From the NCBI GenBank assembly GCA_964434235.1, contig CAYSUN010000001.1:18574-82573 (forward strand): a DNA stretch of 64,000 nucleotides, in the 5' to 3' direction. Below, piece after piece: positions 289 to 48,269 of the stretch. Each line of letters begins with the position of its first letter. Position 1 is the stretch's first letter. The notes under the pieces are model-generated. The model saw only the letters and a program-made list of their open reading frames with translations, was not told the origin of the DNA and did not search any database. The stretch is from an uncultured Gammaproteobacteria bacterium. Its GTDB lineage: Bacteria; Patescibacteriota; Patescibacteriia; UBA11705; JABHMO01. Both the position numbers and the translations under genes were made by a program.

Positions 289-3200
289 ATGCTCAGTCAG
301 TTCAAGAAAATTTTTCATAGCCTTAGTGATAAACTGGGAAAGATATTCCGCTTTGTTAGGTTTTTGATTTGGCCAAAAAATAAGTGGGTCGGTAGGTTGA
401 TGCCTTTTGGTTTTGTGGCTGGTTTGCTTCCATTGACTGTTCATGCTGGTTTGTCTGAATTTCTTCTGTTCTTATTAAATTTCCTTTTATTTAAAATTGC
501 TCAATTGCTGGGTTGGATTGTTATGCAGATATTCGGAGTAGTTTTGATTGTTTCATCTTATAATAATTTTGTTACTCATCCAGCAGTTATCAAAGGTTGG
601 GTCTTGATGCGCGACATGTGTAATTTGTTTTTTGTGATGATTTTGCTTGTTATTGCTTTCATGGTTATTTTGCAAGTTAAAAAGTATGAGCCAACAAAAA
701 TGCTGTACCGAGTAGTGTTAGCTGCAATTTTGGTTAATTTTTCTAAATTGATTTGTGGTATAGTTATAGATTTTGCTCAGGTTGTAATGATGACTTTTGT
801 TAATGGATATGCAGCTTCAGCTGGTGGTAATTTAGTTAATGCTTTAAATTTGGATAGTTTATTATCGCTCAGTACTGATGAAAATATGGACACTGAAGCT
901 GCTTTCCAGATAACAGTAGCCATGATAGCAGCGATTGTTGTTTTAGTGGCGACTATTGTCGTTGTTTTCTTTATTTTAATTTTGTTAACACTTCGAATAA
1001 CTCAATTGTGGATATTAGTAGTTTTATCTCCATTTGCTTTTACTTTGGAAGCAGTACCAGTAGGGGGGTTTCAACAGCAAGCGTCCAAGTGGTTTACTCA
1101 ATTTGGTTGGACAGTAGCAGTTGGTCCGTTTATGGCTTTTTTCCTTTGGCTTAGTTTACTTGTTATGTCTGATCCTGGAGCAATAGTTGGAGACCTGAGT
1201 ACAGCTAGAAAAGTTCAATCAGTTAATAAGGCAAACTTTACTGATACGGGTGGCCATGCAACGGCCACAACAATGGAAGGTCTAACTCAAGCGGCTATTG
1301 GTTTGTCTATGCTTTTTGGTTCATTGATGATTGCTCAGGAAGCTGGAGGTATGATCGGTGATATGGCTTCAAAGGGTGTAGCTTCAACAAAATCAGCTAC
1401 AAAGTGGGCTGCTAATAAAATGACAGGTGGCGTGGCTGAAAAAGGTGGTGCAGCTGTCAAAGGTTATCAAGCAAAACGTAATGAGTTTAAACAATTAAAA
1501 TTGGCTAAATATGGACGAGCAGGAGAAAAAGTTATGGGTCTTCAGGCACAAGCGGGTAGAGTTCCTGGATTTCTTCTTAAAAATGTAGCGAGTGGTATTG
1601 GAGCAGTTGGAAAGGCAATTGATAAAAAGCGAGATGCAGCAAGAACTCCAGAAGAACGAGCAGAAAGAGCTAAAAAGAAAGAAGATAAGGCCAAGAATAA
1701 AAAAAAGAAAAGAGATAACCGAGCTAAACAGATAGACAAATATAAGAATAGCGCTTTCGGCAAAACCATGACAAAAAATTGGCAGAGTACAAATCCTATG
1801 GCTGAGATGTTTGCTAAACGAATTAAAACTGCACACCAAAATACAAAAAATGGTGAAGCAAAAGAATATTTGGCTGGTAAAACATTGGATGAACTAAAAG
1901 AAATTGCTAAAAATACCAGCATGCCTAGTACTATTAGAAATATGGGTGCCTTGGAACTTTCTAGAAAAGGTTATGAGGATGACGGTGATGATGTCGCACC
2001 AAACGAGAGAATGTCTGCTATAGAATATGCTAGAAATGCTCGTAATGATTTAGTTCGGTCTGGTGATAAGGAATCACTAAAAGCGTTTGATGATAATCTT
2101 GAAAAAGGACAGGCTAATATTTTATTCCATATCTCAACTGATGCTGAAAAGACTGCAATGGCTAAAAGGATGCAAAAAGGAGACTTGGAGATGAAAAGCC
2201 AGGGGCCAGAAGCTTTTGGAGATGTTGAGTTTATGGATTTTTATCGTAAAACGGTTGGAAACAAAAAATTTACTTCGACTATAAAAGATGCGTCTGGACG
2301 TGGTGAAGCTTATAGTGATGCAGTTAAAGGCTCCATGCCAAATATGGCTGAGCGTGTACATGTAGATTTAGCTGAACGTGGAAGTGCCGAAGGAATACAA
2401 AGAGAATTTGATTCACGCAAAGCCAAGTTGGATAAACAAATACAAGATGCGGAAATTTTAGGCAAGCCAGATGATGTCGCAAGATTGAAAACTGAAAAAA
2501 ATAAATTAGATCTCAATGGTGTTGGTGCGGAGATTAGAAAACAAATTGAAAAAGATCGAGATGGCTTTCAAAATACTCAAGCTTCAATTACTGGTAGTCT
2601 TGAGGATGCTTTTGGTGATAGAGATAATACAACTGGTAAATTAGATGGAAACATGTCATCTAAGGCGTTAGAAAAAATGGCAAAATATATAAAAAAGTCT
2701 GCAGGAAAAAATTTGGCTAATCTGGGTATTGATAAGTCAGCTGAGAAGGCAGAGAGCGAGGATCCAGATAGTGACAAGAAACCATCTACATCAACTATAG
2801 ATACTTTAGCGGATAACGTGAGCGAAAATCAATTAGTTCAAATGCTTAGGTCTGGTGAGGATGGAGCTGGTGACAAAGTTAATATTCTAGTAAGTAGAAT
2901 GTTGACTAGAGCAGACGATCCGGAAAATTCTAACTTAAAGGCGAGGTTGCAAACAATGTTACAGAAAAATAATGAGATAGTTGGTAGTTTAGATGATGAT
3001 GTCAGAAGGCGGGCGACGGAAAATTTCCCACCGGCCGAACCAAAGGCTGACAAAAAGGACGACAAAGATAATAAAGATCAACAAGGGCAACAAGCTTCAA
3101 GCGGGGACAATGCTCAATCTGGAAGTGGTCAAGATAAACCTCAATCTAAATCTAAACCTAAACCACAGGCTCAATCCCAGGCTGATAGCAGTAGTTATAC

Positions 3201-3438
3201 TTATAAAATTGGTGAGCCAGTTGAAATTAAGGGTGATGATGGCACAGTTCAGAAGTGTGAATATGCTGGGCAAGCAAACACGCAAGGTCATGTAAGAATT
3301 AAACAACAAAATGGCGATGTTATTGAAAGAAAATTAGACACTGTTTTGTTTACTAATAAAGTAATAGCTGAAAACATGAGAAAAGATCGAGATGCATTTA
3401 TGAAAAATAGATCTGGTGGTTATGATACTCAAGCATAA
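289..3438 (+). CDS. polytopic membrane protein, VirB6/TrbL (ConG/TcpH)-like type IV secretion component with a long charged C-terminal extension
   Basis: About 8 hydrophobic helices in the first ~330 aa, followed by a ~700-aa K/E/D/Q-rich hydrophilic tail with a small C-terminal beta domain. This architecture (N-terminal 7-8 TM plus a long C-terminal domain) is typical of Gram-positive VirB6 homologues. It sits in an operon with PrgI-like and VirB4 genes. Confidence 0.5.
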   Translation: MLSQFKKIFHSLSDKLGKIFRFVRFLIWPKNKWVGRLMPFGFVAGLLPLTVHAGLSEFLLFLLNFLLFKIAQLLGWIVMQIFGVVLIVSSYNNFVTHPAVIKGWVLMRDMCNLFFVMILLVIAFMVILQVKKYEPTKMLYRVVLAAILVNFSKLICGIVIDFAQVVMMTFVNGYAASAGGNLVNALNLDSLLSLSTDENMDTEAAFQITVAMIAAIVVLVATIVVVFFILILLTLRITQLWILVVLSPFAFTLEAVPVGGFQQQASKWFTQFGWTVAVGPFMAFFLWLSLLVMSDPGAIVGDLSTARKVQSVNKANFTDTGGHATATTMEGLTQAAIGLSMLFGSLMIAQEAGGMIGDMASKGVASTKSATKWAANKMTGGVAEKGGAAVKGYQAKRNEFKQLKLAKYGRAGEKVMGLQAQAGRVPGFLLKNVASGIGAVGKAIDKKRDAARTPEERAERAKKKEDKAKNKKKKRDNRAKQIDKYKNSAFGKTMTKNWQSTNPMAEMFAKRIKTAHQNTKNGEAKEYLAGKTLDELKEIAKNTSMPSTIRNMGALELSRKGYEDDGDDVAPNERMSAIEYARNARNDLVRSGDKESLKAFDDNLEKGQANILFHISTDAEKTAMAKRMQKGDLEMKSQGPEAFGDVEFMDFYRKTVGNKKFTSTIKDASGRGEAYSDAVKGSMPNMAERVHVDLAERGSAEGIQREFDSRKAKLDKQIQDAEILGKPDDVARLKTEKNKLDLNGVGAEIRKQIEKDRDGFQNTQASITGSLEDAFGDRDNTTGKLDGNMSSKALEKMAKYIKKSAGKNLANLGIDKSAEKAESEDPDSDKKPSTSTIDTLADNVSENQLVQMLRSGEDGAGDKVNILVSRMLTRADDPENSNLKARLQTMLQKNNEIVGSLDDDVRRRATENFPPAEPKADKKDDKDNKDQQGQQASSGDNAQSGSGQDKPQSKSKPKPQAQSQADSSSYTYKIGEPVEIKGDDGTVQKCEYAGQANTQGHVRIKQQNGDVIERKLDTVLFTNKVIAENMRKDRDAFMKNRSGGYDTQA

Positions 3439-3450
3439 TAATTTATTAAA

Positions 3451-5013
3451 ATGACTACAAATAAAAAAACAATTCCAGTACTAAAACAAATAGAACTACC
3501 AGAAAACGTAGCCAATGCTTTGTATAGCGAATTCGGTTATTCTTTAAATAATCAAATTAATAATGAACATGAATTAACTGTTATTCAAAGTTTTTCACTT
3601 GTGAAATTGCAAAATGATTTGTTTTTCAAAAAAGTTGAAGTGTCTGATATTGTACAAGAAATAATTGAGTGTTTGGGTATAAATAAAATCAAGGCAAAAA
3701 AAATTGCTTTAGATGTTTTGGGTAAAAAAATGTTATTACTTGATACTAAGTGGTTTGAGGGCGAAGTAAGTAAAAAAATAACCGAGCTTGGTGGAAATGT
3801 CAAAGATTATAAAGAAATCACTAATAAGTATATTGAAGAGGTTGTCCAAGAAACATTTTATCGTGAATTGTCAGAACAAAAAGAAAAACAAGCTGAAGAG
3901 GCGGAAAAATTAAGTCTTGTGGAAGAGATTGAAGCAGAGGCAGCGGTAGTTAAAGATCCTGAAGGAGAGAAAAAAGCAGCGATCGAAATATTTAGTAATA
4001 AGCTCAAAGATTTGTTGTATGTTAATGATTATGTGTTGAAAATTGAATTAAATATTAGATTGATTACGTTGCTTTTGCAAGAAATGGATGAAGGTGAATT
4101 AAAATCTTTTCATAGCAACTTGTTAAAAGCGATAAAAGAAAATCAAGAATTGATTACTGAACAAAAGATTAATTTAAAAGGCGAATTAGTCGAGCCAACT
4201 GTGGCTAATTGGGTCAAAAATTTTATTCGTGAAGTTGGTTTGGAGGGATCTCAAGTAAACTCATTGAAAAAAGCTAAATATTTAAGTAGCGCTGATAATA
4301 TTCAAGGTTTAAATGAAAACGAGAAAAGAGCAGTTGGTAATTTGTTTTTCCTTTATACTGCCCTAGAAACTTTTTACATTTTGGTGGAAAAATCTGGCAT
4401 TGATGATGTTCTGATACTGCAGTTAACTCCAGAAGAACAACAAGAGTTGAAGCAAGATGTGAAAAAAGCTGAAGAAGAAGATGACAAACAGTCAAAAACA
4501 AAATTAAATGAAGCTGGTGAATCAAAACCTGTGGATATTATGCAGTTGTATTTAGGTAGAGCTGAAGATAGAGAAAAAATCGACACAATTAAACAGCAAT
4601 TATCAATAGATACTCGTCGAGAATACGATAAAGTGGCTGATTACTTGAATGAAAATTTAAAGTCTAGATTTAAATTAAATATTATTGCGGCTATTGAGCT
4701 TTTGGCAGAAATTGGGTCGCTTGATGATTTACTTGCTCACGATGAAAGATATCAAGCGTATATGTACGGATTTTTTAAGCGTAATAATTTACAAGGTGAA
4801 GAAATCGAGTTCAAAAAAAATCCAGTGCAAGCTAAGTACGTTCAATATTTCTTAATGTTTGTATTTATGGAAAGACTTGGAATGAATAATGACAAAGCTG
4901 CTAGATTGGCTGCTAATGTTTCTCAAATATTTATGGCTCAAGGTGTTAGTCAATATGCTCAATTAGCGTACCTTGATTTGAATGATCATCAATTTAAATG
5001 GAGTGATTTATGA
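3451..5013 (+). CDS. hypothetical protein (acidic, coiled-coil-rich) of the T4SS-like operon
   Basis: 520-aa ORF 12 bp downstream of the VirB6-like gene; no motif recognised. Confidence 0.5.
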   Translation: MTTNKKTIPVLKQIELPENVANALYSEFGYSLNNQINNEHELTVIQSFSLVKLQNDLFFKKVEVSDIVQEIIECLGINKIKAKKIALDVLGKKMLLLDTKWFEGEVSKKITELGGNVKDYKEITNKYIEEVVQETFYRELSEQKEKQAEEAEKLSLVEEIEAEAAVVKDPEGEKKAAIEIFSNKLKDLLYVNDYVLKIELNIRLITLLLQEMDEGELKSFHSNLLKAIKENQELITEQKINLKGELVEPTVANWVKNFIREVGLEGSQVNSLKKAKYLSSADNIQGLNENEKRAVGNLFFLYTALETFYILVEKSGIDDVLILQLTPEEQQELKQDVKKAEEEDDKQSKTKLNEAGESKPVDIMQLYLGRAEDREKIDTIKQQLSIDTRREYDKVADYLNENLKSRFKLNIIAAIELLAEIGSLDDLLAHDERYQAYMYGFFKRNNLQGEEIEFKKNPVQAKYVQYFLMFVFMERLGMNNDKAARLAANVSQIFMAQGVSQYAQLAYLDLNDHQFKWSDL

Positions 5014-6230
5014 TATCTAATTTACAAGATGGCTATGTCTTGGTCAAAGATAAGGATGGAGAACTGAAATATTACAAAGAGGGAAAATTCTTCAGTATTG
5101 CAGAAATAGAAAAACAAAGACAAATAGCTTTACAAAAAAATACTAGTCCGAAAGAAAAAGTAGAACTTAAACCTGCTTATAGTTTTGATACTGTTAAACG
5201 TTCGGTTCAAGTTAAACAACCAGATCAAGTGAAGCAATCAGTTCAAGTTAGGCAACTGCCTGAAGATATAAGAAAAGAATTAAGAAAAATTGGTCCAGAA
5301 ATAGAAATCCCTAAATCGCACAAAAAACCTATTTTTCCGAGTAAATTGAAACCCTTGGATCTTGAACCAGAAGAGTTGAAACCGCACAGTGATTTTCATG
5401 AAAGAAGAAATCAAGATCAAGAATTGGTGCAAAAAAAAGTTGACGAAGTGATTGAAAGATTGAAAATTAAATTTAGTGATTCAAGTATAGAAAAAAGATT
5501 TAGAAATATTCTTCTAACTTATTTTCGTGGTATTCGTAAAGACAAAGAATTAGTCTATGTGCTTGGTTTGCCTAAAATAAGTGGTGGCATGGAATTGGAT
5601 GACACGAAGATTAAGATTATTTTGTCAGTTATTAACCAGCATGTGGAAGAATTAGAAAAAGATAGAAGACATTTGGCCAGTAAACCGTTGGCTGATGATA
5701 TTCAAGCGGTTGCTGATATGGAGCATAGATTGGCTCCACCACCACCAGCGATTATTCAAGATAATTCAAAGAATAATCAAGTGGAAAAAAATAGATTTCA
5801 GGCTAGGACTATGCCTAAGCCAGCTATTCAGCGTCCAACGCCAGTTAGTTTGAGTGCTAAAAGACCAGATAGACCGACAATTACAGATATAAAAAGAAGA
5901 CGTTTAATTGGGCCAGTCGAAGAACTTGAAATGATGAATATAGAAAATTTAAGAAGATTGGGAGAGAATGAACATGAAATTATGGAAGAAGTTTTGGAAA
6001 AAATTCAGATTTTAGCAGAGCAATCTTTATTAAAAAAGATTGAAGGTATTAATGCGTGGAAAAGTTCAGCTATCTATAAACTTTATTTGCAAATGACCTA
6101 TGAAGCTATTGTGAATAAGCGAAGTATTGCTGATATTATTGAACAACGGCAATTGAAAAATCAAGAAACTTTAACTTTAAGTGAATATGAAATGTTAGGA
6201 AATATAAATTCTAAATTGAATCTAGCCTAA
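5010..6230 (+). CDS. hypothetical protein with Pro-rich linker, T4SS-like operon
   Basis: ATGA start/stop overlap with the upstream gene (translational coupling); contains PPPPA and repeated VKQSVQV motifs. Confidence 0.5.
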   Translation: MISNLQDGYVLVKDKDGELKYYKEGKFFSIAEIEKQRQIALQKNTSPKEKVELKPAYSFDTVKRSVQVKQPDQVKQSVQVRQLPEDIRKELRKIGPEIEIPKSHKKPIFPSKLKPLDLEPEELKPHSDFHERRNQDQELVQKKVDEVIERLKIKFSDSSIEKRFRNILLTYFRGIRKDKELVYVLGLPKISGGMELDDTKIKIILSVINQHVEELEKDRRHLASKPLADDIQAVADMEHRLAPPPPAIIQDNSKNNQVEKNRFQARTMPKPAIQRPTPVSLSAKRPDRPTITDIKRRRLIGPVEELEMMNIENLRRLGENEHEIMEEVLEKIQILAEQSLLKKIEGINAWKSSAIYKLYLQMTYEAIVNKRSIADIIEQRQLKNQETLTLSEYEMLGNINSKLNLA

Positions 6231-6231
6231 T

Positions 6232-6690
6232 ATGCAACAATTTTTAGTCCCACAATTTATTGACGTTGAAGACAAAATCATCGGTCCTATTACCACAAGA
6301 CAGTTTGTGGAAGTTTTGGCGGGTGTTTTGTTTACTTTTATTTTTTATAAACTTTTAGCTTTTACATATTTTATTTTTGCAGCAATAATTATTTTGCCTT
6401 CAACTGGAATTATTGCTTTTGCAAAAGTTAGTGGACGGCCAATTCATTTTTTCTTGTTAAACTTTTTGCAAACTAGTAAAAGGCCAGCTCTTCGAGTTTG
6501 GAATCGGGCAGCCTATGTTAAGCAAGTTCAAGAAATAAAAAGTGAAATTAAGGAAAAGCCAAAGCCCCAGATTGTTAAAAATGTAATTTCCGGTTCAAGG
6601 TTAAGAGACGTTTCTTTGATTGTTAATACTGGTGGCGTTTATGAGTCGCATGAACCTGTTGTTGATGATAAATTAATGGCTAATAAATAA
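6232..6690 (+). CDS. PrgI/VirB3-like small membrane protein
   Basis: N-terminus FIDVEDKIIGPITTRQFVEVLAGVLF followed by two TM helices resembles the PrgI-family (Gram-positive VirB3) signature; immediately precedes the VirB4 genes, as PrgI precedes PrgJ. Confidence 0.5.
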   Translation: MQQFLVPQFIDVEDKIIGPITTRQFVEVLAGVLFTFIFYKLLAFTYFIFAAIIILPSTGIIAFAKVSGRPIHFFLLNFLQTSKRPALRVWNRAAYVKQVQEIKSEIKEKPKPQIVKNVISGSRLRDVSLIVNTGGVYESHEPVVDDKLMANK

Positions 6691-6724
6691 ATTTATATAA
6701 GTTAACATAAGATTATCAAGAAAT

Positions 6725-7393
6725 ATGGCTACAAAAAGCAGAATAACAACATCAACACAACTTTTTTTGGATATTGCAGAAATAAAAAATAATACTGTAA
6801 TAATGAAAGATGGAACACTTCGAGCAGTTTTAATGGTTTCAAGTGTCAATTTTGCCCTTAAATCTGAAGATGAGCAAGAAGCTTTGGTTTCTTCTTATGT
6901 AACCTTTTTGAATTATTTAGATTTCCCATTACAAATAGTAATTCAATCCAGGAAATTGGATATTGATAACTATTTAAAGAGAATAGAAGTTGCAGAAAAA
7001 GATTTAACTAATGAATTGCTTAAAAAACAAATAGTTGATTATAAAAATTATATTAATGAATTGGTTGAACTTGGTGATATTATGACTAAACATTTTTTTG
7101 TTGTTGTGCCGTACAGTGTTTTGGAAAGCAAGAAAAATGGATTTTTTGATAAAGTAGGTGCAGTTTTCACTCCGGCAAGAGTAATTCGTCTTAAAACTGA
7201 TAAATTTGAAAAATATTTACATGATTTAAATCAAAGAGTTGAGCATGTTTCTTCTAATATTACTTCACTTGGCATTACAGCAGTTCGATTGGATACCCAA
7301 AGTTTAATAGAGCTTTATTATAATGTTTATAATCCTGTTATGGCCAAGAGCCAAAAATTAGTAGATATTGATGAGCTAAGGGTAGAAAGATAA
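6725..7393 (+). CDS. VirB4/TraC-family N-terminal domain, encoded as a separate ORF
   Basis: FLDIAEIKNNTVIMKDGTLRAVLMVSSVNFALKSEDEQEALVSSYVTFLNYLDFPLQIVIQS matches the conserved N-terminal region of CagE/TrbE/VirB4-type ATPases; ends with TAATAA, 33 nt before the ATPase ORF. Confidence 0.5.
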   Translation: MATKSRITTSTQLFLDIAEIKNNTVIMKDGTLRAVLMVSSVNFALKSEDEQEALVSSYVTFLNYLDFPLQIVIQSRKLDIDNYLKRIEVAEKDLTNELLKKQIVDYKNYINELVELGDIMTKHFFVVVPYSVLESKKNGFFDKVGAVFTPARVIRLKTDKFEKYLHDLNQRVEHVSSNITSLGITAVRLDTQSLIELYYNVYNPVMAKSQKLVDIDELRVER

Positions 7394-7426
7394 TAATTTA
7401 TAATTTTAAATCTTGTATAATAAAAT

Positions 7427-9334
7427 ATGTTTAAACCCAATGATGTCAAGAAAAAACCAGTTTCTTCTGAGATACCAATTCCTAAATTAGAAATACTTAA
7501 CGAAACTGCTTCTATTAAAAATGAGGAAGTAAAAGCTTCAAAACAAAAAGAAGTTTTGGAACAAGAAAAAACGTATCGTAAGGGAATAACTTCGGTTTTG
7601 GATATAGTTGCTCCGGCTGCGTTTGAAGTAAATCCTGATCATGTTCGAATTGGCGGACTTTTTGCTAGAACTCTTTTTGTCATGACTTATCCAAGATATA
7701 TTAACGTTGGTTGGTTTTCTCCAGTTATAAACTATAACGCAACTTTGGATATTAGCATGTTTTTTTATCCAATTGAGGCTGGTGTAGTTTTGAAACAATT
7801 AAAAAATAAAGTTGGTATTTTAACAGCCCAGTTAACTTCAGATTCAGAAAAAGGAGCTCCTCGTGATCCACTTAGAGAAACAGCCCTTCAAGATATTGAG
7901 CAACTTCGAGATGATATTACTCAGGGTACTGAAAAGTTTTTTCAATATGCGTTATATGTAACTTTGTATGAAAAAACTATTAGTGAGTTGGATGTTTTAA
8001 CTGAAGACGTTGAAACTGTACTGGGAACAAGGTCAATAATTTCTAAACGGGTATTTTATCAAGCAGAGCAAGGCTTTAATTCAACAATTCCTATTTCTAA
8101 TGATGAATTAATGATAACTGCTAATCTTAATTCTTCCCCAATTGCTGCTTCATTCCCATTTATGTCCTCGGAGCTTACTTCTGATGATGGAGTTTTATTT
8201 GGTATTAATCGACATAATAACAGTTTAATTTTGTTCGATCGATTTTCTTTGCAAAATGCTAATGCCTGTGTGTTCGCTACTTCTGGAGCTGGTAAAAGTT
8301 ATACTATAAAACTGGAAATTTTGCGGAGTATGATGCTTGGAACAGATGTGATTATTATTGATCCAGAAAGAGAATATAAAAATTTGAATGACGCGGTTGG
8401 TGGAACTTATGTAAATATTTCCTTGAATTCTGATAGTAAAATTAATCCTTTTGATTTACCTCGAAAAATGGGTGATATGTCGGCGGCTGATGTTATCCGA
8501 AGTGCAGTCATTACTTTGAAAGGTTTAATGCGAATTATGCTTGGAAAAATGACTTTTCAAGAAGATTCTATTATGGATAGAGCTTTAATTGAAACTTATG
8601 CTAAAAAAGATATTACTGGTGAATCTGATCTAACCACAATCGAACCACCAATTATGCAGGATTTGTATGATGTTCTTGATGGAATGGATGGTGGAGCTGA
8701 TTTAGCTTTACGTTTGAAAAAATATACTTCGGGAACATTTTCTGGTTTATTTAATTCACCGACTAATGTAGACATGGCCAATCAATTAGTTTGTTTTAGT
8801 GTGCGTGACTTGGAAGATGAACTTCGACCAATGGCAATTTATAACATTGTTAATTATATTTGGAATGTAGTTCGATCGGAAGTAAAAAAGAGAATTTTGG
8901 TAATTGATGAAGCTTGGTGGTTATTGCAACATGAAGATTCAGCAAAATTTATTCACGCTTTAGTAAAAAGATGTCGTAAATATTATTTGGGAGTTACAAC
9001 TATTACACAGGATGTAAATGATTTTCTTTTGTCTCAATATGGTCAAGCGATTGTAACAAATTCAGCTTTGAAAATTTTGTTAAAACAAGCTCCTTCAGCT
9101 ATGGATTTGATTCAAAAAACTTTTCAATTAACTGAAGGTGAAAAATATTTACTTTTAGAATGTAATGTTGGTGAAGGAATTTTCTTTGCTGGTAGTCGTC
9201 ATGCTGCGATGAAAGTTGTGGCTTCTCCGCTTGAAGATAGAATGATTACAACTGATCCTCGACAGTTGTTAGCACAGGAAAAACAGAGAGAAGAAGAAGA
9301 GGCTAAGGAAGCTGAAAGAGAAAATACAGTTTGA
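7427..9334 (+). CDS. virB4: VirB4-like type IV secretion ATPase (central and C-terminal ATPase part)
   Basis: Walker A FATSGAGKSYT; Walker B ILVIDEAWWLL (the DEAW motif typical of VirB4/TraC); N-terminal region with the PRYINVGWFSPVIN..LDISMFFYPI motif seen in Gram-positive VirB4 (TcpF/PrgJ-like). Confidence 0.8.
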   Translation: MFKPNDVKKKPVSSEIPIPKLEILNETASIKNEEVKASKQKEVLEQEKTYRKGITSVLDIVAPAAFEVNPDHVRIGGLFARTLFVMTYPRYINVGWFSPVINYNATLDISMFFYPIEAGVVLKQLKNKVGILTAQLTSDSEKGAPRDPLRETALQDIEQLRDDITQGTEKFFQYALYVTLYEKTISELDVLTEDVETVLGTRSIISKRVFYQAEQGFNSTIPISNDELMITANLNSSPIAASFPFMSSELTSDDGVLFGINRHNNSLILFDRFSLQNANACVFATSGAGKSYTIKLEILRSMMLGTDVIIIDPEREYKNLNDAVGGTYVNISLNSDSKINPFDLPRKMGDMSAADVIRSAVITLKGLMRIMLGKMTFQEDSIMDRALIETYAKKDITGESDLTTIEPPIMQDLYDVLDGMDGGADLALRLKKYTSGTFSGLFNSPTNVDMANQLVCFSVRDLEDELRPMAIYNIVNYIWNVVRSEVKKRILVIDEAWWLLQHEDSAKFIHALVKRCRKYYLGVTTITQDVNDFLLSQYGQAIVTNSALKILLKQAPSAMDLIQKTFQLTEGEKYLLLECNVGEGIFFAGSRHAAMKVVASPLEDRMITTDPRQLLAQEKQREEEEAKEAERENTV

Positions 9335-16712: not shown

Positions 16713-17648
16713 ATGAAAATAAAAATAAAATATATGAATTATTCTTTTTTCCGAATAATAAAATTTGCAATTCAAGATTTCTATAGAAATTTTTGGTTAT
16801 CAATAGTAACTATTACAGTTCTAATTTTAGCTTTATTTTCAGTTAATATTTTAGTTTCCTTAAATGCTATTTCTGATAGTGTTATTAGTTCAGTCAAGGA
16901 CAAGGTTGATGTAAGTGTGTTTTTTCAGGCTGAAACGCCACAAGCTGTGATTGATAATTTTCAGCAAAAAATTGTGGCAATGGATGAAGTAGACAGTGTT
17001 TTGTTTATTGGTAAAAATGAAGCTTTGGATAGTTTTAAGGAAAAACATAGCGATGATCCAGCTTTGATGGAAGCGCTTAAGGAAGTCGAACAAAATCCTT
17101 TGTTAGATGCTTTAATTGTTAAGGCTACAGACACTGCTGGTTATAATAAAATATTATCAACTTTGAATTTACCAGAAAATCAAGAAGTCATTAAATATCA
17201 AAATTATACTGATCATGAAAAGATTATTAACCGAGTTTCTGTTTTGAGTGATAAAATTAGAAAATTCAGTCTTTCTTTGACAGTGATATTCTCAATTATT
17301 GCGATATTAATAGTTTTTAATGCAATTAGAGTCACAATCTATACTCATCGTGAAGAGATCGCAGTTATGCGCCTTGTGGGGGCTAGTAATTCATTTATTA
17401 GAGCGCCATTTTTGGTGGAAGGTATAATTTTTGCTCTTGTTTCTGTTTGTCTGGCTTCAATTGCTTTGTATGTTTGTTTTATTGCATTAACTCCATATTT
17501 AAGCGGTTTCCTTGAAACTTACAATTTTAGTTTAATTGGGTATTATCAAGCTAATTTTTGGCAAATTTTATTATCTCAGATTGGGGCAGTGATCCTTTTG
17601 AATATAGTAAGCGCGGGTGTGGCTATAGGTAAGCACCTTCGAGTTTAA
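16713..17648 (+). CDS. ftsX: cell-division permease-like protein FtsX
   Basis: TM1, large extracytoplasmic domain, three C-terminal TM helices; genomic context with ftsE. Confidence 0.8.
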   Translation: MKIKIKYMNYSFFRIIKFAIQDFYRNFWLSIVTITVLILALFSVNILVSLNAISDSVISSVKDKVDVSVFFQAETPQAVIDNFQQKIVAMDEVDSVLFIGKNEALDSFKEKHSDDPALMEALKEVEQNPLLDALIVKATDTAGYNKILSTLNLPENQEVIKYQNYTDHEKIINRVSVLSDKIRKFSLSLTVIFSIIAILIVFNAIRVTIYTHREEIAVMRLVGASNSFIRAPFLVEGIIFALVSVCLASIALYVCFIALTPYLSGFLETYNFSLIGYYQANFWQILLSQIGAVILLNIVSAGVAIGKHLRV

Positions 17649-17724
17649 GGGTTTACAATGTCCAAAAATCATGCTAAACTACTATTCGTAGTTAGCATTT
17701 TGTTATTTAGTCTATCGAAATAAG

Positions 17725-17813
17725 GAGAGGTGCCTGAGCGGTCGAAAGGGGCACCCTGCTAAGGTGTTAGATTCTAACGGGTCTCGAGGGTTCGAATCCC
17801 TCCCTCTCCGCCA
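17725..17813 (+). tRNA. tRNA-Ser (anticodon GCU), long variable arm, CCA encoded
   Basis: Cloverleaf read by eye: acceptor GGAGAGG/CCTCTCC, anticodon stem GCACC/GGTGT with loop CTGCTAA, long variable arm, T arm GGGTTCGAATCCC. Confidence 0.8.
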
Positions 17814-17903
17814 AAAATAGACATATAAACAAATAAGGGATGAGAAGCCTGCCCTGAGGTAGGAGCAAGCGACGAATCTCAGGGAATCCCTCCCTCTCCG
17901 CCA
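17814..17903 (+). repeat. short insert ending in a 20-nt direct copy of the tRNA-Ser(GCU) 3' end (GAATCCCTCCCTCTCCGCCA)
   Basis: Exact duplicate of tRNA positions ~17794-17813 at 17884-17903; att-site-like tRNA 3'-end duplication. Confidence 0.7.
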
Positions 17904-17996
17904 ATTTATTCGTTTTTTGGGCTTAAATATAGTGCAAAGGGCTAATCATAAAAATAGCGTAAATTACTTGTTGCAAATTAAAATCATAATAATTAT

Positions 17997-18086
17997 GGAG
18001 AGATGGCTGAGTGGTTGAAGGCGACGGTCTTGAAAACCGTTGAACCTGCAAGGGTTCCGTGGGTTCAAATCCCACTCTCTCCGCCA
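17997..18086 (+). tRNA. tRNA-Ser (anticodon UGA), long variable arm, CCA encoded
   Basis: Acceptor GGAGAGA/TCTCTCC, anticodon stem ACGGT/ACCGT with loop CTTGAAA, long variable arm, T arm GGGTTCAAATCCC. Confidence 0.8.
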
Positions 18087-18216
18087 AAGATTATCAATTC
18101 TTAATATCGGGATTTGAATGGGAAGGGGTAGGGAAACGGTAGTTTCCCGAGGAGGAAAGTTGGGAAACCTTGGGTTTCCCAAAGGAGCAAAGCGACGCTC
18201 AAGATCCCACTCTCAC
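18087..18216 (+). repeat. insert ending in a near-copy (19/20) of the tRNA-Ser(UGA) 3' end, with internal GGGAAAC/GTTTCCC hairpins
   Basis: ATCCCACTCTCACTCCGCC at ~18198-18216 versus tRNA ATCCCACTCTCTCCGCC; shares the motif GGAGCAA(A)GCGACG..TCARG with the first insert. Confidence 0.65.
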
Positions 18217-18242
18217 TCCGCCTAAAATAAACTTAATTTAAG

Positions 18243-18272
18243 CAGTTTCGCGTACGCGAAGCTGTTTTTTTT
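18243..18272 (+). terminator. rho-independent terminator
   Basis: Hairpin CAGTTTCGCGTACGCGAAGCTG followed by T8. Confidence 0.7.
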
Positions 18273-18295
18273 ATTGCTCTTTTTTGTGTAATTTT

Positions 18296-18328
18296 ATTTG
18301 CCTGATTTCGGAAAAATGAGTATAATTT
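18296..18328 (+). promoter_or_regulatory. promoter-like direct repeat DR1 (GGAAAAATGAGTATAATTTAGTTAGATTT)
   Basis: Contains a TATAAT box; 31/33 identical to the copy at 19903-19936. Confidence 0.5.
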
Positions 18329-18394
18329 AGTTAGATTTGGGTTCGGGTAGGAGGATTTTTGTAAAATTAATTTTTATTTTTTAATCCCAACAAT

Positions 18395-18823
18395 ATGATA
18401 GATCTTAAAAATGCTAATAAAAAACTTATTGATTTAATTTTTTTTGCCTTGGATAACGGAATCGATTCGGTTAAAACAGGTGACCTCTTAATACCATTTA
18501 TTGTTGCTGAAACAGATAGTAAAAAAACACTAAATAAGTTTGTACCAAAAGATTTTAGTAAAATGGAAGAATGTTTGCAAAAAGCTCAAGAATATATAAC
18601 CAAGCTTAATCCTTTACCAGATTTTATTGTGATTACGTTTGATGGGAAGGTAACAATTCAAGGCGAAAAAACAGAGGCGATAGTGGTCAAAGGATTTGAT
18701 AAAACACAAGATGAAGGGTTTGTATTTGCCCAGAGATATAAACCAAAAGCATTTTTAAAAAAGTTTTCTGTCATAGGTAATGCTGGTTACATGGGAAATG
18801 AATCAAACCCATTGAAAAAATAA
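18395..18823 (+). CDS. hypothetical protein
   Basis: 142-aa ORF inside the DR-flanked cassette; no motif recognised. Confidence 0.45.
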   Translation: MIDLKNANKKLIDLIFFALDNGIDSVKTGDLLIPFIVAETDSKKTLNKFVPKDFSKMEECLQKAQEYITKLNPLPDFIVITFDGKVTIQGEKTEAIVVKGFDKTQDEGFVFAQRYKPKAFLKKFSVIGNAGYMGNESNPLKK

Positions 18824-19073
18824 AAATTTACATCACTTGACACAGAATATGCGGTTCTGTTCGTCATCGTAACTTTTTTAACTATAATCATCTTTGGCAC
18901 TGGCAAGTCGCTTTATTCCAAATTATATCAGTGCCAAAGATCGCATATATACGAAAGTTGTGTGAAATAGCAAGAAATTCCTTACTTATTTTTTAGATTT
19001 TTTTTGGGAAATTTATTTTAGGTCAAACATGACTTGTGATAAAATATAATCATTATTATTAACTACTAAAATT

Positions 19074-19313
19074 ATGGAAAACCCGCAAATGGGCTCAACG
19101 CCCGAACAGCCAAAGAAAAAATGGAAAGTGCTAATCGAAATGGAAGGATATGGCAAAGATGGTGAAGAAATTACCGGCCCAGCTCTTTATGAAGAAGTAA
19201 TAGTTGAAGCAATGACTGCTGATGAGGCAGATGATGTTGTGACAAATATGGATTTTGGCAATCGTAGAGTAAGCTACGTAGAAGAACCGGAGGAAGTTAT
19301 AGAAGCTAAATAA
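19074..19313 (+). CDS. small acidic hypothetical protein
   Basis: 79-aa ORF preceded by a TATAAT-like box (tgataaaatataat). Confidence 0.4.
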   Translation: MENPQMGSTPEQPKKKWKVLIEMEGYGKDGEEITGPALYEEVIVEAMTADEADDVVTNMDFGNRRVSYVEEPEEVIEAK

Positions 19314-19342
19314 GTTGTATCATTCAAACAAAATTTATACTT

Positions 19343-19888
19343 ATGGAAGGTGAACAACATTTTTCCCCTAAAAAAAAGAAAAAGCCACTATTTTTGTATC
19401 ACGCATCGGCCAACAGGGAAATAGAAAATTTTGAACCTCGAGCAAAAAGTACACGTGACCCAGAAGAAGGTCCTGTTATTTTTGCCACCCCTGATTTTGC
19501 ACTTGCTACTACATTTTTAGTCAGCGAAGCAAATGATGAGTGGACTCAAATTGGAAAAATCAACAATACCCCTTACATGGTAATTATGGATAAAGAAAAA
19601 TTTTTGCTACATGATAAAGGTGGCTCAATTTATAAATTTTCGAATAATGGCTTTACTTCAGATCCAGACAAGGGTATGGGCGATGATGAATGGACCAGTA
19701 GAGATTCGGTTACTCCAATTGAAAAAACGGATGTTGAATCAGCTCTTGGGGCAATGATAGAAAATGGCGTACAAGTATTCTTCGTGGAGAAAGAAACATT
19801 CAGCAAGATTAAAGACTCCGCAGATAAGATCAGCATATTAAAAACACTTGAATCTGAAAATCAAAGACAAGGAAAAAATTTTGCGTGA
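19343..19888 (+). CDS. hypothetical protein
   Basis: 181-aa ORF; no motif recognised. Confidence 0.45.
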   Translation: MEGEQHFSPKKKKKPLFLYHASANREIENFEPRAKSTRDPEEGPVIFATPDFALATTFLVSEANDEWTQIGKINNTPYMVIMDKEKFLLHDKGGSIYKFSNNGFTSDPDKGMGDDEWTSRDSVTPIEKTDVESALGAMIENGVQVFFVEKETFSKIKDSADKISILKTLESENQRQGKNFA

Positions 19889-19902
19889 AATTGTAGTTTT
19901 GC

Positions 19903-19936
19903 TTTTTTCCTGTTTTGGGAAAAATAAGTATAATTT
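19903..19936 (+). promoter_or_regulatory. promoter-like direct repeat DR2 (GGGAAAAATAAGTATAATTTAGTTAGATTT)
   Basis: Second copy of the DR1 sequence, ~1.6 kb downstream. Confidence 0.5.
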
Positions 19937-20070
19937 AGTTAGATTTATATCACACAACACCGAGATAAGTAAAAGGGGATAGTTTAATATTTCTTGATCC
20001 ATAACTCCGTAAAAATGTTTATTTAATAAGGGGAAAAGAATATAATTAAATTAAAATAAATTATAACAAT

Positions 20071-20829
20071 ATGAAACATATTATAAGTTGGAAAGTGTTT
20101 TTTGTTTTATTAGGATTGGCAATGATCAGCATAATTTGCGTATTTCCATACATTCTCACTGTTCAGGGGGAATTATTAAATAAAATTGGCCAGCCGATTC
20201 AGGTTATATTCATCGCTCAATTTATTCAAAGCCTTATTCTTTTTTCTATTGTTATATTTTTTGGGCTTTTTTTTGCAAAAAAATTAAATTTTCAACTTCC
20301 ACTTATTGAAAAAATATTAGAAAAAAAAGATTATAAGTCAATATTAAAAAATATTCTAGGAAAATCAGTCCTCTCAGGAATTATCGTGGCCATTGCCATC
20401 TATGTATTAGATATTCTTTTTTCTATAAATGGTGCGATTATTACCACCCACGAAAACTATGCCCCAATATGGCAAAAATTGCTCGCAGCTGTTTACGGAG
20501 GGGTGGCTGAAGAAATTCTAATGAGATTATTTTTGATGCTGTTCTTTATTTGGATTAGTGTGAAATTATTTAGAAAAACAGAAACTTCGAAATTAGGAAT
20601 AATCATATCAATTTTTCTCTCGGCTATAATATTTGGTTTGGGACATTTGCCGATTACAGCTTCTGTAACCGCGATTACACCTATAGTTATAGGTCGAGCA
20701 ATTATTTTAAATGGAATCGGCGGAATTGTTTTTGGCTGGCTTTTTTGGAAAAAGGGTCTTGAATCAGCAATAATTGCTCATTTTACTGCGGATATTTTTT
20801 TATTAACCATTTTACCTTTGGTTTTTTAA
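20071..20829 (+). CDS. CPBP-family intramembrane metalloprotease (CAAX protease/Abi-like)
   Basis: Polytopic; motifs VAEEILMRLF (EExxxR), FGLGHLP (FxxxH) and IIAHFTADIF (HxxxD/N). Confidence 0.7.
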   Translation: MKHIISWKVFFVLLGLAMISIICVFPYILTVQGELLNKIGQPIQVIFIAQFIQSLILFSIVIFFGLFFAKKLNFQLPLIEKILEKKDYKSILKNILGKSVLSGIIVAIAIYVLDILFSINGAIITTHENYAPIWQKLLAAVYGGVAEEILMRLFLMLFFIWISVKLFRKTETSKLGIIISIFLSAIIFGLGHLPITASVTAITPIVIGRAIILNGIGGIVFGWLFWKKGLESAIIAHFTADIFLLTILPLVF

Positions 20830-21149
20830 AATATATTAAAAATATTAAACTTAATTAAATAATACAAATGCTACAATAGTAAAAGCCACAGATAGTCATA
20901 TAAACGTAAATGTATTCTTTAATTCTGGAGGTGGCTACATTTAGGAGGCAAAAGTTTAAGGCGAATGGAAGTATTATGATAATTATTTCGGTGGTGAATC
21001 AGTGGCTGGTAAACATGAGACTATTAAAAAAAATAAAAGTATGAGTTTTTCTGGACAAAAGCTATAAAAAGACCTATAATTATTATAATTATTGGGTATT
21101 TGACGCTTGAATCTTGGCACAACTTTAGTCAATAAATAAAAATAAAAAT

Positions 21150-21671
21150 ATGAAAAAGTTTTTAACAAAATTAGTTACACCGTTAATGCCTGAAGATATT
21201 GGTGAAATCCATATTAGTTGGGAGTTCCCAGAATTTGTCCAACAAGAAAGAAGTCGAGCTTGGTATGTGGTATTTTCCTTGTTACTCGCTTTGTTGATTT
21301 TGTATGCAGCTTTTACAGCGAATTTTTTGTTTGCCATAATTCTATTACTTGGTTCATTTGTAATTATTTTTCAATATTTTCAACAAGCTAGGAAATTGCC
21401 AATGGTTATTGGTCAAGACGGTATTATTATAGATACCCAGTTTATTCCATATAAGGCTTTGAAAAGTTTTTCCATTGTTTATGAACCGCCAGTTATTAAA
21501 CTTCTTTATTTAGATTTTAATAGTTCTGTACGAAAAAGTTTACCAGTTCCACTTGAAGATGTTAATCCAATCAAAGTCCGAGAAATTTTACTTAATTATA
21601 TTGAAGAAAACTTTGAAAGAAAAGAAGAGTCATTTGATGAAACATTTGAAAGAGTCTTGCGTTTAAGATAA
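21150..21671 (+). CDS. hypothetical membrane protein (2 TM)
   Basis: Two adjacent TM helices (WYVVFSLLLALLILYAAF, FLFAIILLLGSFVIIF) and a soluble C-terminal domain. Confidence 0.45.
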   Translation: MKKFLTKLVTPLMPEDIGEIHISWEFPEFVQQERSRAWYVVFSLLLALLILYAAFTANFLFAIILLLGSFVIIFQYFQQARKLPMVIGQDGIIIDTQFIPYKALKSFSIVYEPPVIKLLYLDFNSSVRKSLPVPLEDVNPIKVREILLNYIEENFERKEESFDETFERVLRLR

Positions 21672-21725: not shown

Positions 21726-21802
21726 GTCCTCATAGCTCAGTTGGATAGAGCGTCAGCTTGCGGAGCTGAAGGTCGGAGGTTCGAGTCTTCCTGGGGACAC
21801 CA
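21726..21802 (+). tRNA. tRNA-Arg (anticodon reads GCG), CCA encoded
   Basis: Strong similarity in arm structure to bacterial tRNA-Arg (TAGCTCAGTTGGATAGAGC D arm; GGTCGGAGGTTCGAGTCTTCC T arm); anticodon loop TTGCGGA. Confidence 0.7.
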
Positions 21803-47918: not shown

Positions 47919-48269
47919 ATGCAGACATATGATTTAACTGAAAGAATGTTTAGGTTTGCCAGAGATATTCGTTGTTTAGTAAATTCCTTACCAAAAAAGA
48001 CCACAAATTTTGAAGATGGACGTCAAGTTGTTCGATCTTCTGGCTCTGTTGGCGCGAATTATATAGAAGCGTCAGAACCATTGGGATTCAAAGATGAATT
48101 GCACAAGCTGAAAATTTCAAGGAAAGAAGTTAAAGAGACGATTTATTGGTTGAAGTTGATTATGTCTCAAAATAATATTGAATTACTGACGGATATTTCT
48201 AAGCTAATTGATGAAGCAACGCAAATATTAAAAATTTTATCAACTATTATTAAAAAGTTACAAGACTAA
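47919..48269 (+). CDS. four-helix-bundle protein (23S rRNA intervening-sequence protein family)
   Basis: FRFARDIRCLVNSLPKK...VRSSGSVGANYIEA...EVKETIYWLKL is characteristic of the TIGR02436-type family. Confidence 0.65.
   Translation: MQTYDLTERMFRFARDIRCLVNSLPKKTTNFEDGRQVVRSSGSVGANYIEASEPLGFKDELHKLKISRKEVKETIYWLKLIMSQNNIELLTDISKLIDEATQILKILSTIIKKLQD

Follow-up and report, generated by a model that had tools for sequence, protein, structure and literature searches.

The closest described counterparts of the element treated here are the tRNA-linked repeats (TLRs) of Escherichia coli, among them RtT RNA (rttR, Rfam RF00391), whose first description as a group is credited in a later account to Egan and Landy in 1978 and of which, in the same account, Rudd in 1999 listed 22 copies at ten loci of strain K-12 (PMC8144298). 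In all 22 of these E. coli TLRs, the 3' 18-19 bp are identical to the upstream tRNA or 5S rRNA, which is the defining feature of the family (PMC8144298). TLRs also lie behind 5S rRNA, and the three 5S-linked units bind Hfq and CsrA in vitro; the processing of RrB has been described, an early proposal that linked TLRs to the stringent response was withdrawn, and a study of 2021 states TLRs to be without known function (PMC8144298). The literature that we searched discusses them for E. coli and other Enterobacterales only (PMC8144298). Here, we examine two short inserts directly behind the paired tRNA-Ser genes of an uncultured bacterium of the Patescibacteria (candidate phyla radiation, CPR), within a 64-kb stretch of contig CAYSUN010000001.1 that we refer to as the window. 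From their sequences, it is quite likely that the two inserts are compact, divergent TLRs, or RtT-like units, yet not certified members of the Rfam family RF00391. The family itself is already known; what is new is the CPR host, the compact form, and the evidence for TLR core blocks common to distant bacteria.

The tRNA-Ser pair and its two inserts

The locus reads, in order, ftsE-ftsX, a promoter-like site, tRNA-Ser(GCU), the first unit (TLR1), tRNA-Ser(UGA), the second unit (TLR2), and a terminator, with TLR1 beginning 1 base after tRNA-Ser(GCU) and TLR2 1 base after tRNA-Ser(UGA). Between ftsX and the terminator, a consensus scan finds one promoter-like site on the + strand, and the terminator-like hairpin is the single one within 17400-18500. 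The features are the following:

17652-17680, + strand: promoter-like site from the consensus scan (TTTACA, 17-nt spacer, TAAACT, with TG), a putative promoter
17724-17813, + strand: tRNA-Ser(GCU), CCA encoded (ARAGORN and Rfam, 56.3 bits)
17814-17903, + strand: TLR1, a probable compact RtT-like unit of 90 nt (RF00391 alignment, chain alignment)
17814-17883, + strand: insert 1, 70 nt (from the sequence)
17837-17849, + strand: TLR block A, GGGATGAGAAGCC, a 13-mer identical to E. coli serX TLRs
17852-17884, + strand: hairpin CCCTGAG / CTCAGGG with loop GTAGGAGCAAGCGACGAAT, which is TLR block D (from the sequence; motif at 17862-17874)
17884-17903, + strand: GAATCCCTCCCTCTCCGCCA, identical to the final 20 nt of tRNA-Ser(GCU) (T-loop G57 to CCA)
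17904-17996: AT-rich spacer, 93 nt (from the sequence)
17997-18086, + strand: tRNA-Ser(UGA), CCA encoded (ARAGORN and Rfam, 61.2 bits)
18087-18222, + strand: TLR2, a probable longer and more degenerate unit (chain alignment)
18087-18203, + strand: insert 2, 117 nt (from the sequence)
18109-18118, + strand: GGGATTTGAA, inverted copy of the T loop and T-stem 3' strand of tRNA-Ser(UGA)
18131-18182, + strand: two internal hairpins of TLR2, GGGAAAC-GGTA-GTTTCCC (18131-18148) and TTGGGAAACC-TTG-GGTTTCCCAA (18160-18182)
18184-18197, + strand: TLR2 block D motif, GGAGCAAAGCGACG (from the sequence)
18204-18222, + strand: degenerate copy of the tRNA-Ser(UGA) 3' end, ATCCCACTCTC (18204-18214), AC, then TCCGCC (18217-18222), without CCA
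18240-18275, + strand: intrinsic-terminator-like hairpin (12 pairs; hairpin at 18240-18267) with T run

The preliminary description of this DNA had reported a 70-nt insert behind tRNA-Ser(GCU) that ends in an exact 20-nt copy of the tRNA 3' end at 17884-17903, and a check of the sequence agrees; with the next A included, the identity is 21 nt. It had also reported a motif, GGAGCAA(A)GCGACG, common to both inserts, which a search of the 64 kb finds at those two sites only (GGAGCAAGCGACG, 17862-17874; GGAGCAAAGCGACG, 18184-18197). The GGGAAAC/GTTTCCC hairpins and the inverted T-loop copy that it noticed in insert 2 are genuine as well, GGGATTTGAA being a 10-nt inverted match of TTCAAATCCC (18064-18073) that is equalled in 14 of 2000 shuffles. 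What needed amending was the second insert, which had been given as 110 nt and is 117 nt, and its terminal copy, which had been given as a 19/20 match and consists of 11 + 6 nt split by a 2-nt insertion, without CCA; an end placed at 18216 had truncated this copy, which reaches 18222. With these small corrections to insert 2, the checks of layout, motif, and inverted copy confirm the observation. A 17-nt tRNA-Ser 3'-end probe with up to 3 mismatches gives 3 matches against a chance expectation of 0.05, and the tRNA-Arg(GCG) at 21726-21802 shows no 3'-end duplication. The hallmark of TLRs, a 3' end identical to that of the upstream tRNA, is present throughout in TLR1 (20/20, including CCA) and in part in TLR2 (11 + 6 nt).

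In a permissive Rfam scan, the single weak match falls exactly over insert 1 and is to RtT RNA, RF00391, the best Rfam family for TLR1 (17819-17903 against model positions 1-130, E = 0.3 in a 100-nt search); its 16.6 bits lie far below the family's gathering score of 45 bits, so that the match is a lead and not a classification, and E. coli controls score 133-137 bits. The alignment takes in TLR1 over the full length of the model, of which the central 45 positions are deleted; it agrees with the consensus GGAUGAGAA close to the 5' end and with AUCC...CCA at the 3' end, and it places the 5' GGGAU of TLR1 in the closing helix, facing AUCCC. We also used a chain alignment, in which the non-tRNA-derived part of each unit was aligned collinearly with 12 E. 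coli TLRs from five loci. TLR1 scored 18.3, which is equalled by 1 of 3162 same-length segments of the window and by 2 of 1500 composition-matched shuffles, and TLR2 scored 19.9, equalled by 1/3162 segments and 7/1500 shuffles; for each insert, the empirical p of its likeness to E. coli TLRs is ~3e-4 (1/3162 window segments). Judged on sequence, it is very unlikely that two such scores, each right behind a tRNA and ahead of a copy of that tRNA's own 3' end, are a coincidence.

The E. coli blocks used for comparison stand behind Tyr, Ser, Lys, Arg, and Pro tRNAs. The 5' block of TLR1, GGGAUGAGAAGCC (13-mer GGGATGAGAAGCC), is exactly that of the serX TLR and reads GGATGAGAAGC in rttR. Its 3' block is GGUAGGAGCAAGCGACGAAU where the TLR of the tyrT-tyrV spacer has GGUGAGGAGCGAAGCGACGAAU, and block D aligns to GGTGAGGAGCGAAGCGACGAAT of the same spacer TLR over a 22-nt block with 20 identities and two 1-nt gaps, the match reading GGT-AGGAGC-AAGCGACGAAT. 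As a whole, TLR1 runs AAGGGATGAGAAGCC TGCCCTGAGGTAGGAGCAAGCGACGAATCTCAGGGA and then, past the T-loop junction, ATCCCTCCCTCTCCGCCA, with block order and junction as in the TLRs of E. coli. There, the unit behind tyrT reads ...GGGGAAGGGTGAGAACC...GGGTGAGGAGCGAAGCGACGAATA and then ATCCTTCCCCCACCACCA, the three units behind tyrV read ...GGGGAAGGATGAGAAGC...CTGAGTA and then ATCCTTCCCCCACCACCA, and the serX units, whose repeat takes in the terminator, read ...GGGGGGATGAGAAGCCCC...GGGCGAGCGAAGCGAGTCA and then ATCCCCCCCTCACCGCCA. The conserved GGAUGAGAAGC supplies the start codon of E. coli tpr (L038 1288-1377), a 29-aa 'protamine-like' open reading frame (ORF). In the window, the AUG of GGAUGAGAAGC opens no more than a five-codon frame in TLR1 (17840-17857), which argues that GGAUGAGAAGC is not coding here and that the block is kept for a non-coding reason. 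A text search of the literature with sequence strings of the units gave no match.

Anatomy and occurrence of the units

From 5' to 3', the units consist of a purine-rich complement of the T arm, 0-2 variable hairpins, GGAGCAA(A)GCGACG in a loop, and the tRNA 3'-end copy beginning inside the T loop, this copy running from about position 57-59 of the tRNA onward. The 5' complement of the T loop and T-stem 3' strand is GGGAU-GAGAAGCC in TLR1 and GGGAUUUGAA in TLR2. Across units, this segment pairs with the T-loop AU and the T-stem 3' strand, in some cases also with the first bases of the acceptor, and it tracks the local tRNA, as the following pairs of 5' segment and 3' copy illustrate:

E. coli Tyr: GGGGAAGGAU and AUCCUUCCCC
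E. coli Ser(GGA): GGGGGGAU and AUCCCCCC
E. coli Arg: GGGAGGAU and AUCCUCCC
E. coli Pro: GAGGAU and AUCCUC
TLR1: AGGGAU (A at 17836) and AUCCCU, GGGAU/AUCCC(U) being the closing helix of the Rfam RtT consensus

In TLR2, in a unit of L007 behind tRNA-Gly (11 nt), and in the E. coli lysQ TLR (13 nt), the 5' segment repeats 10-13 nt of the T arm exactly and in inverted orientation. Several E. coli TLRs have a closing helix of 8-10 bp that is clearly longer with cognate than with non-cognate tRNA tails. Block D, which in most E. coli units is a small hairpin set between CGAG and CGAG, has a stem that covaries among them (GC/GC, GCC/GGC, GAC/GUC, GCCAC/GUGGC) and a loop of GAA or GNRA. In the subtype formed by the tyrT-spacer unit and those of the window, it is GGAGC-RAA-GCGAC, which could fold as a mini-hairpin with tandem G.A pairs. 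A TLR(Arg) unit found in two of the metagenomic loci described below carries a hairpin that is CCAAUUGC/GCAAUUGG in L037 and UAAAUCGC/GCGAUUUA in L035, and a second one that is GGAUCGC/GCGAUCC and AGAUCGCC/GGCGAUCU, respectively, both with compensatory changes. Such changes argue that a single-strand structure is under selection, be it RNA or DNA during replication or transposition. The RNA fold of TLR2 has z = -3.1.

When metagenomes were scanned for the motif with a tRNA-Ser-like 3' end behind it, the matches came from the window species and three other lineages, and the motif with a tRNA-Ser-type 3'-end copy recurs in L034, L036, and L035/L037, which belong to unrelated lineages. In the GC-rich L034, tRNA-Ser(UGA) and its terminator are followed by a core of ~105 nt and then by a 48-nt repeat of the tRNA end and terminator, and L036 has two tandem units; both give weak full-length RF00391 matches (19.8 bits for L034, 21.8 bits for L036). 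The GGTGAGGAGCAAAGCGACGAAT of L035 matches the E. coli tyrT spacer unit at 21/22 positions. L035 (1170-1345) and L037 (2500-2680, minus strand) also hold a pseudo-tRNA-Ser(GCU) without D arm that is interrupted exactly in the T loop, GGGTTCGA being followed by ~100 nt ending in GGAGCAAAGCGACGAATCC and then by ATCCCTCTCTC, just upstream of an intact tRNA-Ser(GCU). This pseudo-tRNA looks like an early stage of TLR formation.

Scanning all fetched loci for tRNA 3'-end copies added two TLR-like units to these. One follows tRNA-Arg(ACG) in L037 and is also present in L035, where it comes after an IS481 insertion; the IS481-family transposase gene of L035 (1585-2877, minus strand; rve, HTH_32, LZ_Tnp_IS481) stands between tRNA-Arg(ACG) and the terminator and TLR and is absent in L037. 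The other, in the CPR relative L007 (820-982, minus strand), is a 148-nt unit behind tRNA-Gly(CCC) that opens, 13 nt past the tRNA, with the 11-nt exact inverted T-arm copy GGGAATCGAAC and ends in TCCCGTACTCCGCTCCA.

Closer to the host, a CPR bacterium of the Kuenenbacteria/Falkowbacteria type whose FtsX is at most 67% identical to that of GTDB representatives and 73% identical to the closest metagenomic proteins, the order of ftsX and two tRNA-Ser genes is kept in eight relatives (L001, L002, L004, L005, L006, L008, L039, and L042), L003 keeps tRNA-Ser(GCU) alone, and most relatives with this synteny have tRNA-Arg(GCG) further on. In L039, L005, and L042, the two tRNA-Ser genes are 3, 24, or 49 nt apart and then give way to a terminator or ordinary sequence, and the gap in L004 is 5 nt. 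A scan of the relatives that included L003, L006, and L008 found no tRNA 3'-end copies, and the two nearest relatives are also without the inserts, so that the inserts appear specific to this species. This accords with the lineage-specific insertion behaviour earlier proposed for the locus; the same duplicated 3' ends in related genomes, which had been named as speaking against an insertion, did not appear in the scan. Five independent assemblies of the same species are identical in sequence over whatever part of the region each covers. The same-species contigs L014-L018 start at window positions 17811, 17883/17884, 17902, and 18010, which are boundaries of the 21-nt repeat of TLR1; these breaks may reflect a population mixed for TLR1, or an assembler artefact at the repeat or the conserved tRNA.

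At the same intergenic sites, CPR relatives carry small GIY-YIG genes (L001 4080-4358 and 4513-4803, L002 ~4315-4470, L005 ~4111-4371). The two L001 ORFs, beside tRNA-Ser(GCU), match Pfam PF01541 at E = 1e-13 to 1e-15, and the ORFs of L002 and L005 match them by phmmer/hmmsearch. In L001 and L002, the GIY-YIG gene stands between the two tRNA-Ser genes and is preceded by GC-rich hairpins, CTCGACTCGCTTCGCTCGCTCG...CGAAGCGAGTCGAG, which contain TTCGACCAA and CGAAGCGAGTC, words found in E. coli TLRs too. A general link between GIY-YIG genes and the motif was considered and rejected, there being no such gene in the window or in the 120 viral motif loci listed.

Downstream of the pair, the DNA had been described as accessory up to recG, and this holds for one part of it. 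The 173-aa gene at 21150-21671 has an orthologue directly after the tRNAs in L039 (74% identity). That position implies that ~2.75 kb (18.3-21.1 kb) is extra in the window, and the four ORFs found there (18300-21100; 142 aa, 79 aa, a 181-aa DUF6886-like protein, and a 252-aa CAAX protease) are absent from the two nearest relatives, in which the orthologue of the 173-aa gene comes straight after the tRNAs. The segment has ordinary base composition and contains no integrase, no flanking repeat, and no second tRNA-Ser(UGA) 3'-end copy at its far side.

Elsewhere in the window, 289-9334 holds large ORFs without Pfam match (1049, 520, and 406 aa) and then a TraG/VirB4-like P-loop ATPase (7427-9334, PF19044, E = 1.5e-29), a set that may serve type IV secretion or a conjugation-like process. 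At 47919-48269, next to the GAPDH and prepilin peptidase genes, a free-standing gene encodes a '23S rRNA-intervening sequence protein' (PF05635, E = 1.4e-15).

Weighing the likeness against other origins

Several results weigh against assigning the inserts to the TLRs. Besides the sub-threshold score of TLR1, TLR2 has no RF00391 match in the Rfam scan, nhmmer profiles of the non-tRNA-derived parts of TLRs found nothing significant in the window, and a model of the TLR 3' module built from E. coli alone (R1) found no match either with default filters over 139 kb or with filters off over the window. With the profile searches null and the Rfam score below threshold, the case for homology depends on short blocks, on the order in which they come, and on where they lie. 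A CGUUGC..GCAACG hairpin and the GCCCGAAGGG block are dominant in the E. coli consensus, and the window units have neither. TLR1 folds no better than shuffles (z = -1.2), and the closing helix in both window units is 5-6 bp, no longer than with non-cognate tails, for which reason we do not claim a proven helix. The pattern that led to L034, L035, and L036 came from the window itself, and these loci therefore count only for the association of the motif with tRNA ends, not for the motif itself. Finally, the block-D motif is widespread outside tRNA contexts, so that on its own it is not TLR-specific.

An unlikely alternative, in line with the miniature tRNA-targeting elements that the preliminary description had named as a further possibility, takes the conserved core to be a small non-autonomous mobile module, a hairpin with the constant loop GAGGAGCRAAGCGACGAR, that would insert in or next to the T-arm hairpin of a tRNA gene and duplicate the tRNA 3' end; TLRs would then be tRNA-locked copies, and no function in the cell would be needed. 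In IMG/VR, the 18-mer GAGGAGCRAAGCGACGAR is present at no fewer than 120 loci where ~7 are estimated by chance; its complementary stems are of at least 7 different kinds, and inverted, REPIN-like pairs are frequent. This fits such a module, as do the presence and absence of units between related genomes, the tandem arrays of E. coli and L036, and the pseudo-tRNA-Ser of L035/L037, whose T loop is split exactly by ~100 nt (GGGTTCGA before, ATCCC after) and which has an intact copy next to it. If the core moved as a simple insertion, however, the tracking of the local tRNA by the 5' T-arm complement would be left unexplained, and the direct repeats, at 17-48 nt, are unlike a fixed target-site duplication. 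No HUH/RAYT, integrase, DDE transposase, or GIY-YIG gene was found in the window, GIY-YIG genes are unassociated with the motif in the 120 viral loci listed, and the motif has two copies only in 64 kb. In a broader form, which we regard as similarly doubtful, TLR cores may be members of a very widespread family, absent from Rfam 15, of small hairpin modules with a constant 18-nt interior, GAGGAGCRAAGCGACGAR, and a variable closing stem. The CCCTGAG...CTCAGGG hairpin of TLR1 has the same form as the viral 18-mer hairpins, a block over which the permissive Rfam scans made of the window are without a match. If this were true, the module would spread between phyla (Gammaproteobacteria, Patescibacteria, phage contigs), copying the local tRNA 3' end at T arms and creating TLRs, and it would constitute a tRNA-gene-targeting miniature mobile element. 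The IMG/VR loci that carry the 18-mer are L049-L167 and L024 (for example, L112 875-892, L095 1668-1685, and L131 550-567); the main class among the at least 120 viral loci is GTCATTGC...GCAATCC, which is frequently paired in inverted, REPIN-like fashion and does not adjoin tRNAs.

The interpretation first offered for the inserts was that of att scars, the remains of decayed or deleted genomic islands that a tyrosine recombinase had integrated at the tRNA 3' end. Integrase identity blocks are direct repeats that begin in the T loop and run to the tRNA 3' end, and the copies here have that geometry, next to empty sites in relatives and a variable 2.75-kb segment downstream. But neither the units nor the window hold an integrase or its remnant, the 70-nt and 117-nt inserts are without ORF, and recombinase, integrase, transposase, or HUH domains were found in none of the 58 window ORFs (cutoff E <= 1e-3 for the 10 nearest and E <= 1e-8 for the remaining 48). 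No matching tRNA 3'-end repeat lies beyond the variable segment, and the insert DNA has blocks in common, in order, with the TLRs that E. coli carries next to its Tyr, Ser, Lys, Arg, and Pro tRNAs, and blocks in common with L034-L037. At 60-180 nt, the size class is alike in every lineage, which would not be expected from random decay, and the TLRs behind 5S rRNA stand at a gene that is, to our knowledge, no integrase target. We have accordingly dropped the integrase scar, which seems highly improbable. A direct repeat of a tRNA 3' end is in itself no proof of an integrated element, so TLRs can mislead island-finding pipelines. The chance is likewise very slim that the units are decayed tandem tRNA duplicates, each a tRNA-Ser pseudogene recognisable at its 3' end only, even though the start-to-start spacing of 90 nt is that of a tRNA, TLR1 is exactly 90 nt, and the similarity extends slightly past the exact copy (TCTC-AGGG vs TCTCGAGGG). 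The nearly complete pseudo-tRNA-Ser of L035/L037 carries the core, and E. coli TLRs keep a direct copy of the T-arm 5' half, as such an origin would have it. Compared with their own tRNA after removal of the 3' copy, however, the units give Smith-Waterman scores that are reached by 1469/2000 (TLR1) and 782/2000 (TLR2) shuffles, the parts outside the copy match E. coli TLR blocks of non-tRNA origin, and the relatives have no intermediate duplicated tRNAs at the locus. The pseudogene was rejected as a candidate on this shuffle test, which found no direct similarity to the tRNA body.

Transcription, formation, and comparison with known systems

Taken as a whole, the explanation towards which we lean is that the two inserts are units of the TLR family that are co-transcribed with their tRNAs, trimmed at a tRNA-like 3' end, and of DNA-level origin. 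The single promoter-like site and single terminator around the unit indicate that the inserts are probably co-transcribed spacer RNAs. If so, the promoter, tRNA-Ser(GCU), TLR1, tRNA-Ser(UGA), TLR2, and the terminator would make up one transcript, the tRNA-like 3' end would cause the tRNA 3'-end processing machinery to trim TLR1 at its CCA, and this trimming would yield discrete small RNAs of ~80-130 nt. The annotated RttR small RNA of E. coli has a 3' end that is exactly the CCA of its tRNA-end copy. By analogy with the RttR ends and RrB, and given the layout of promoter and terminator, a co-transcribed spacer RNA released by tRNA 3'-end processing would be the best-supported reading of the units.

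As to their formation, this lineage may have gained the units through a DNA-level event at the tRNA 3' end, either an insertion or a local rearrangement, and they could later expand and contract through recombination between direct repeats, as in the E. coli arrays. The 48-nt repeat of L034, together with the terminator-containing repeats at E. coli serX, proK, and lysQ, shows that core, 3' end, and terminator were duplicated together as DNA and not from mature tRNA. The question of what TLRs do has been open for more than 45 years, since 1978, and the locus offers a comparative entry point to it: comparison separates the conserved blocks (GGAUGAGAAGC, and GAGGAGCRAAGCGACGAAU at the T-loop junction) from those that track the local tRNA. 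The occurrence of TLR blocks in a CPR bacterium with a reduced genome and in unrelated lineages suggests either functional constraint on the family or an unusual ability to spread.

Islands bounded by attL and attR, and the integrase-less cis-mobilizable elements (CIMEs), resemble the locus in the direct repeat of a tRNA 3' end from the T loop and in the empty sites; the units here, however, have neither integrase nor cargo, and their intervening DNA is a conserved small module shared with distant bacteria and, in the published accounts, present behind 5S rRNA genes too. Repetitive extragenic palindromic (REP) sequences and REPINs, which are mobilised by RAYT (HUH) transposases, share with the block-D motif elsewhere the hairpin of constant interior and variable stems, the inverted pairs, and the small size. 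REPs, however, are dispersed in tens to hundreds of copies untied to tRNA 3' ends, whereas the window has two copies in 64 kb, both behind tRNAs, and REP/REPIN elements have their RAYT (HUH) transposases, whereas no HUH transposase was found in the window ORFs. The nearest likeness is to the E. coli TLRs, which also stand directly behind a tRNA in its operon (behind tRNA-Ser too, at serX and serW), end in a copy of the upstream tRNA 3' end that begins in the T loop, carry the 5' block GGAUGAGAAGC and, adjoining the T-loop junction, the 3' block GAGGAGCGAAGCGACGAAU, and contain internal hairpins. They differ in their enterobacterial rather than Patescibacteria (CPR) host, in a length before the copy of about 80-165 nt as against about 70 and 117 nt, in forming tandem arrays, of which the window units have none, and in the intact 3'-end copy, which in TLR2 is degenerate and without CCA. 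For the proposed release of the units by processing, the comparison is with 3'ETS-leuZ of E. coli, for which we know of no report of a tRNA 3'-end copy. It is a functional small RNA with a known role as a sponge, and it is cut from the trailer of a tRNA operon by tRNA-processing enzymes, as is proposed for the inserts described here.

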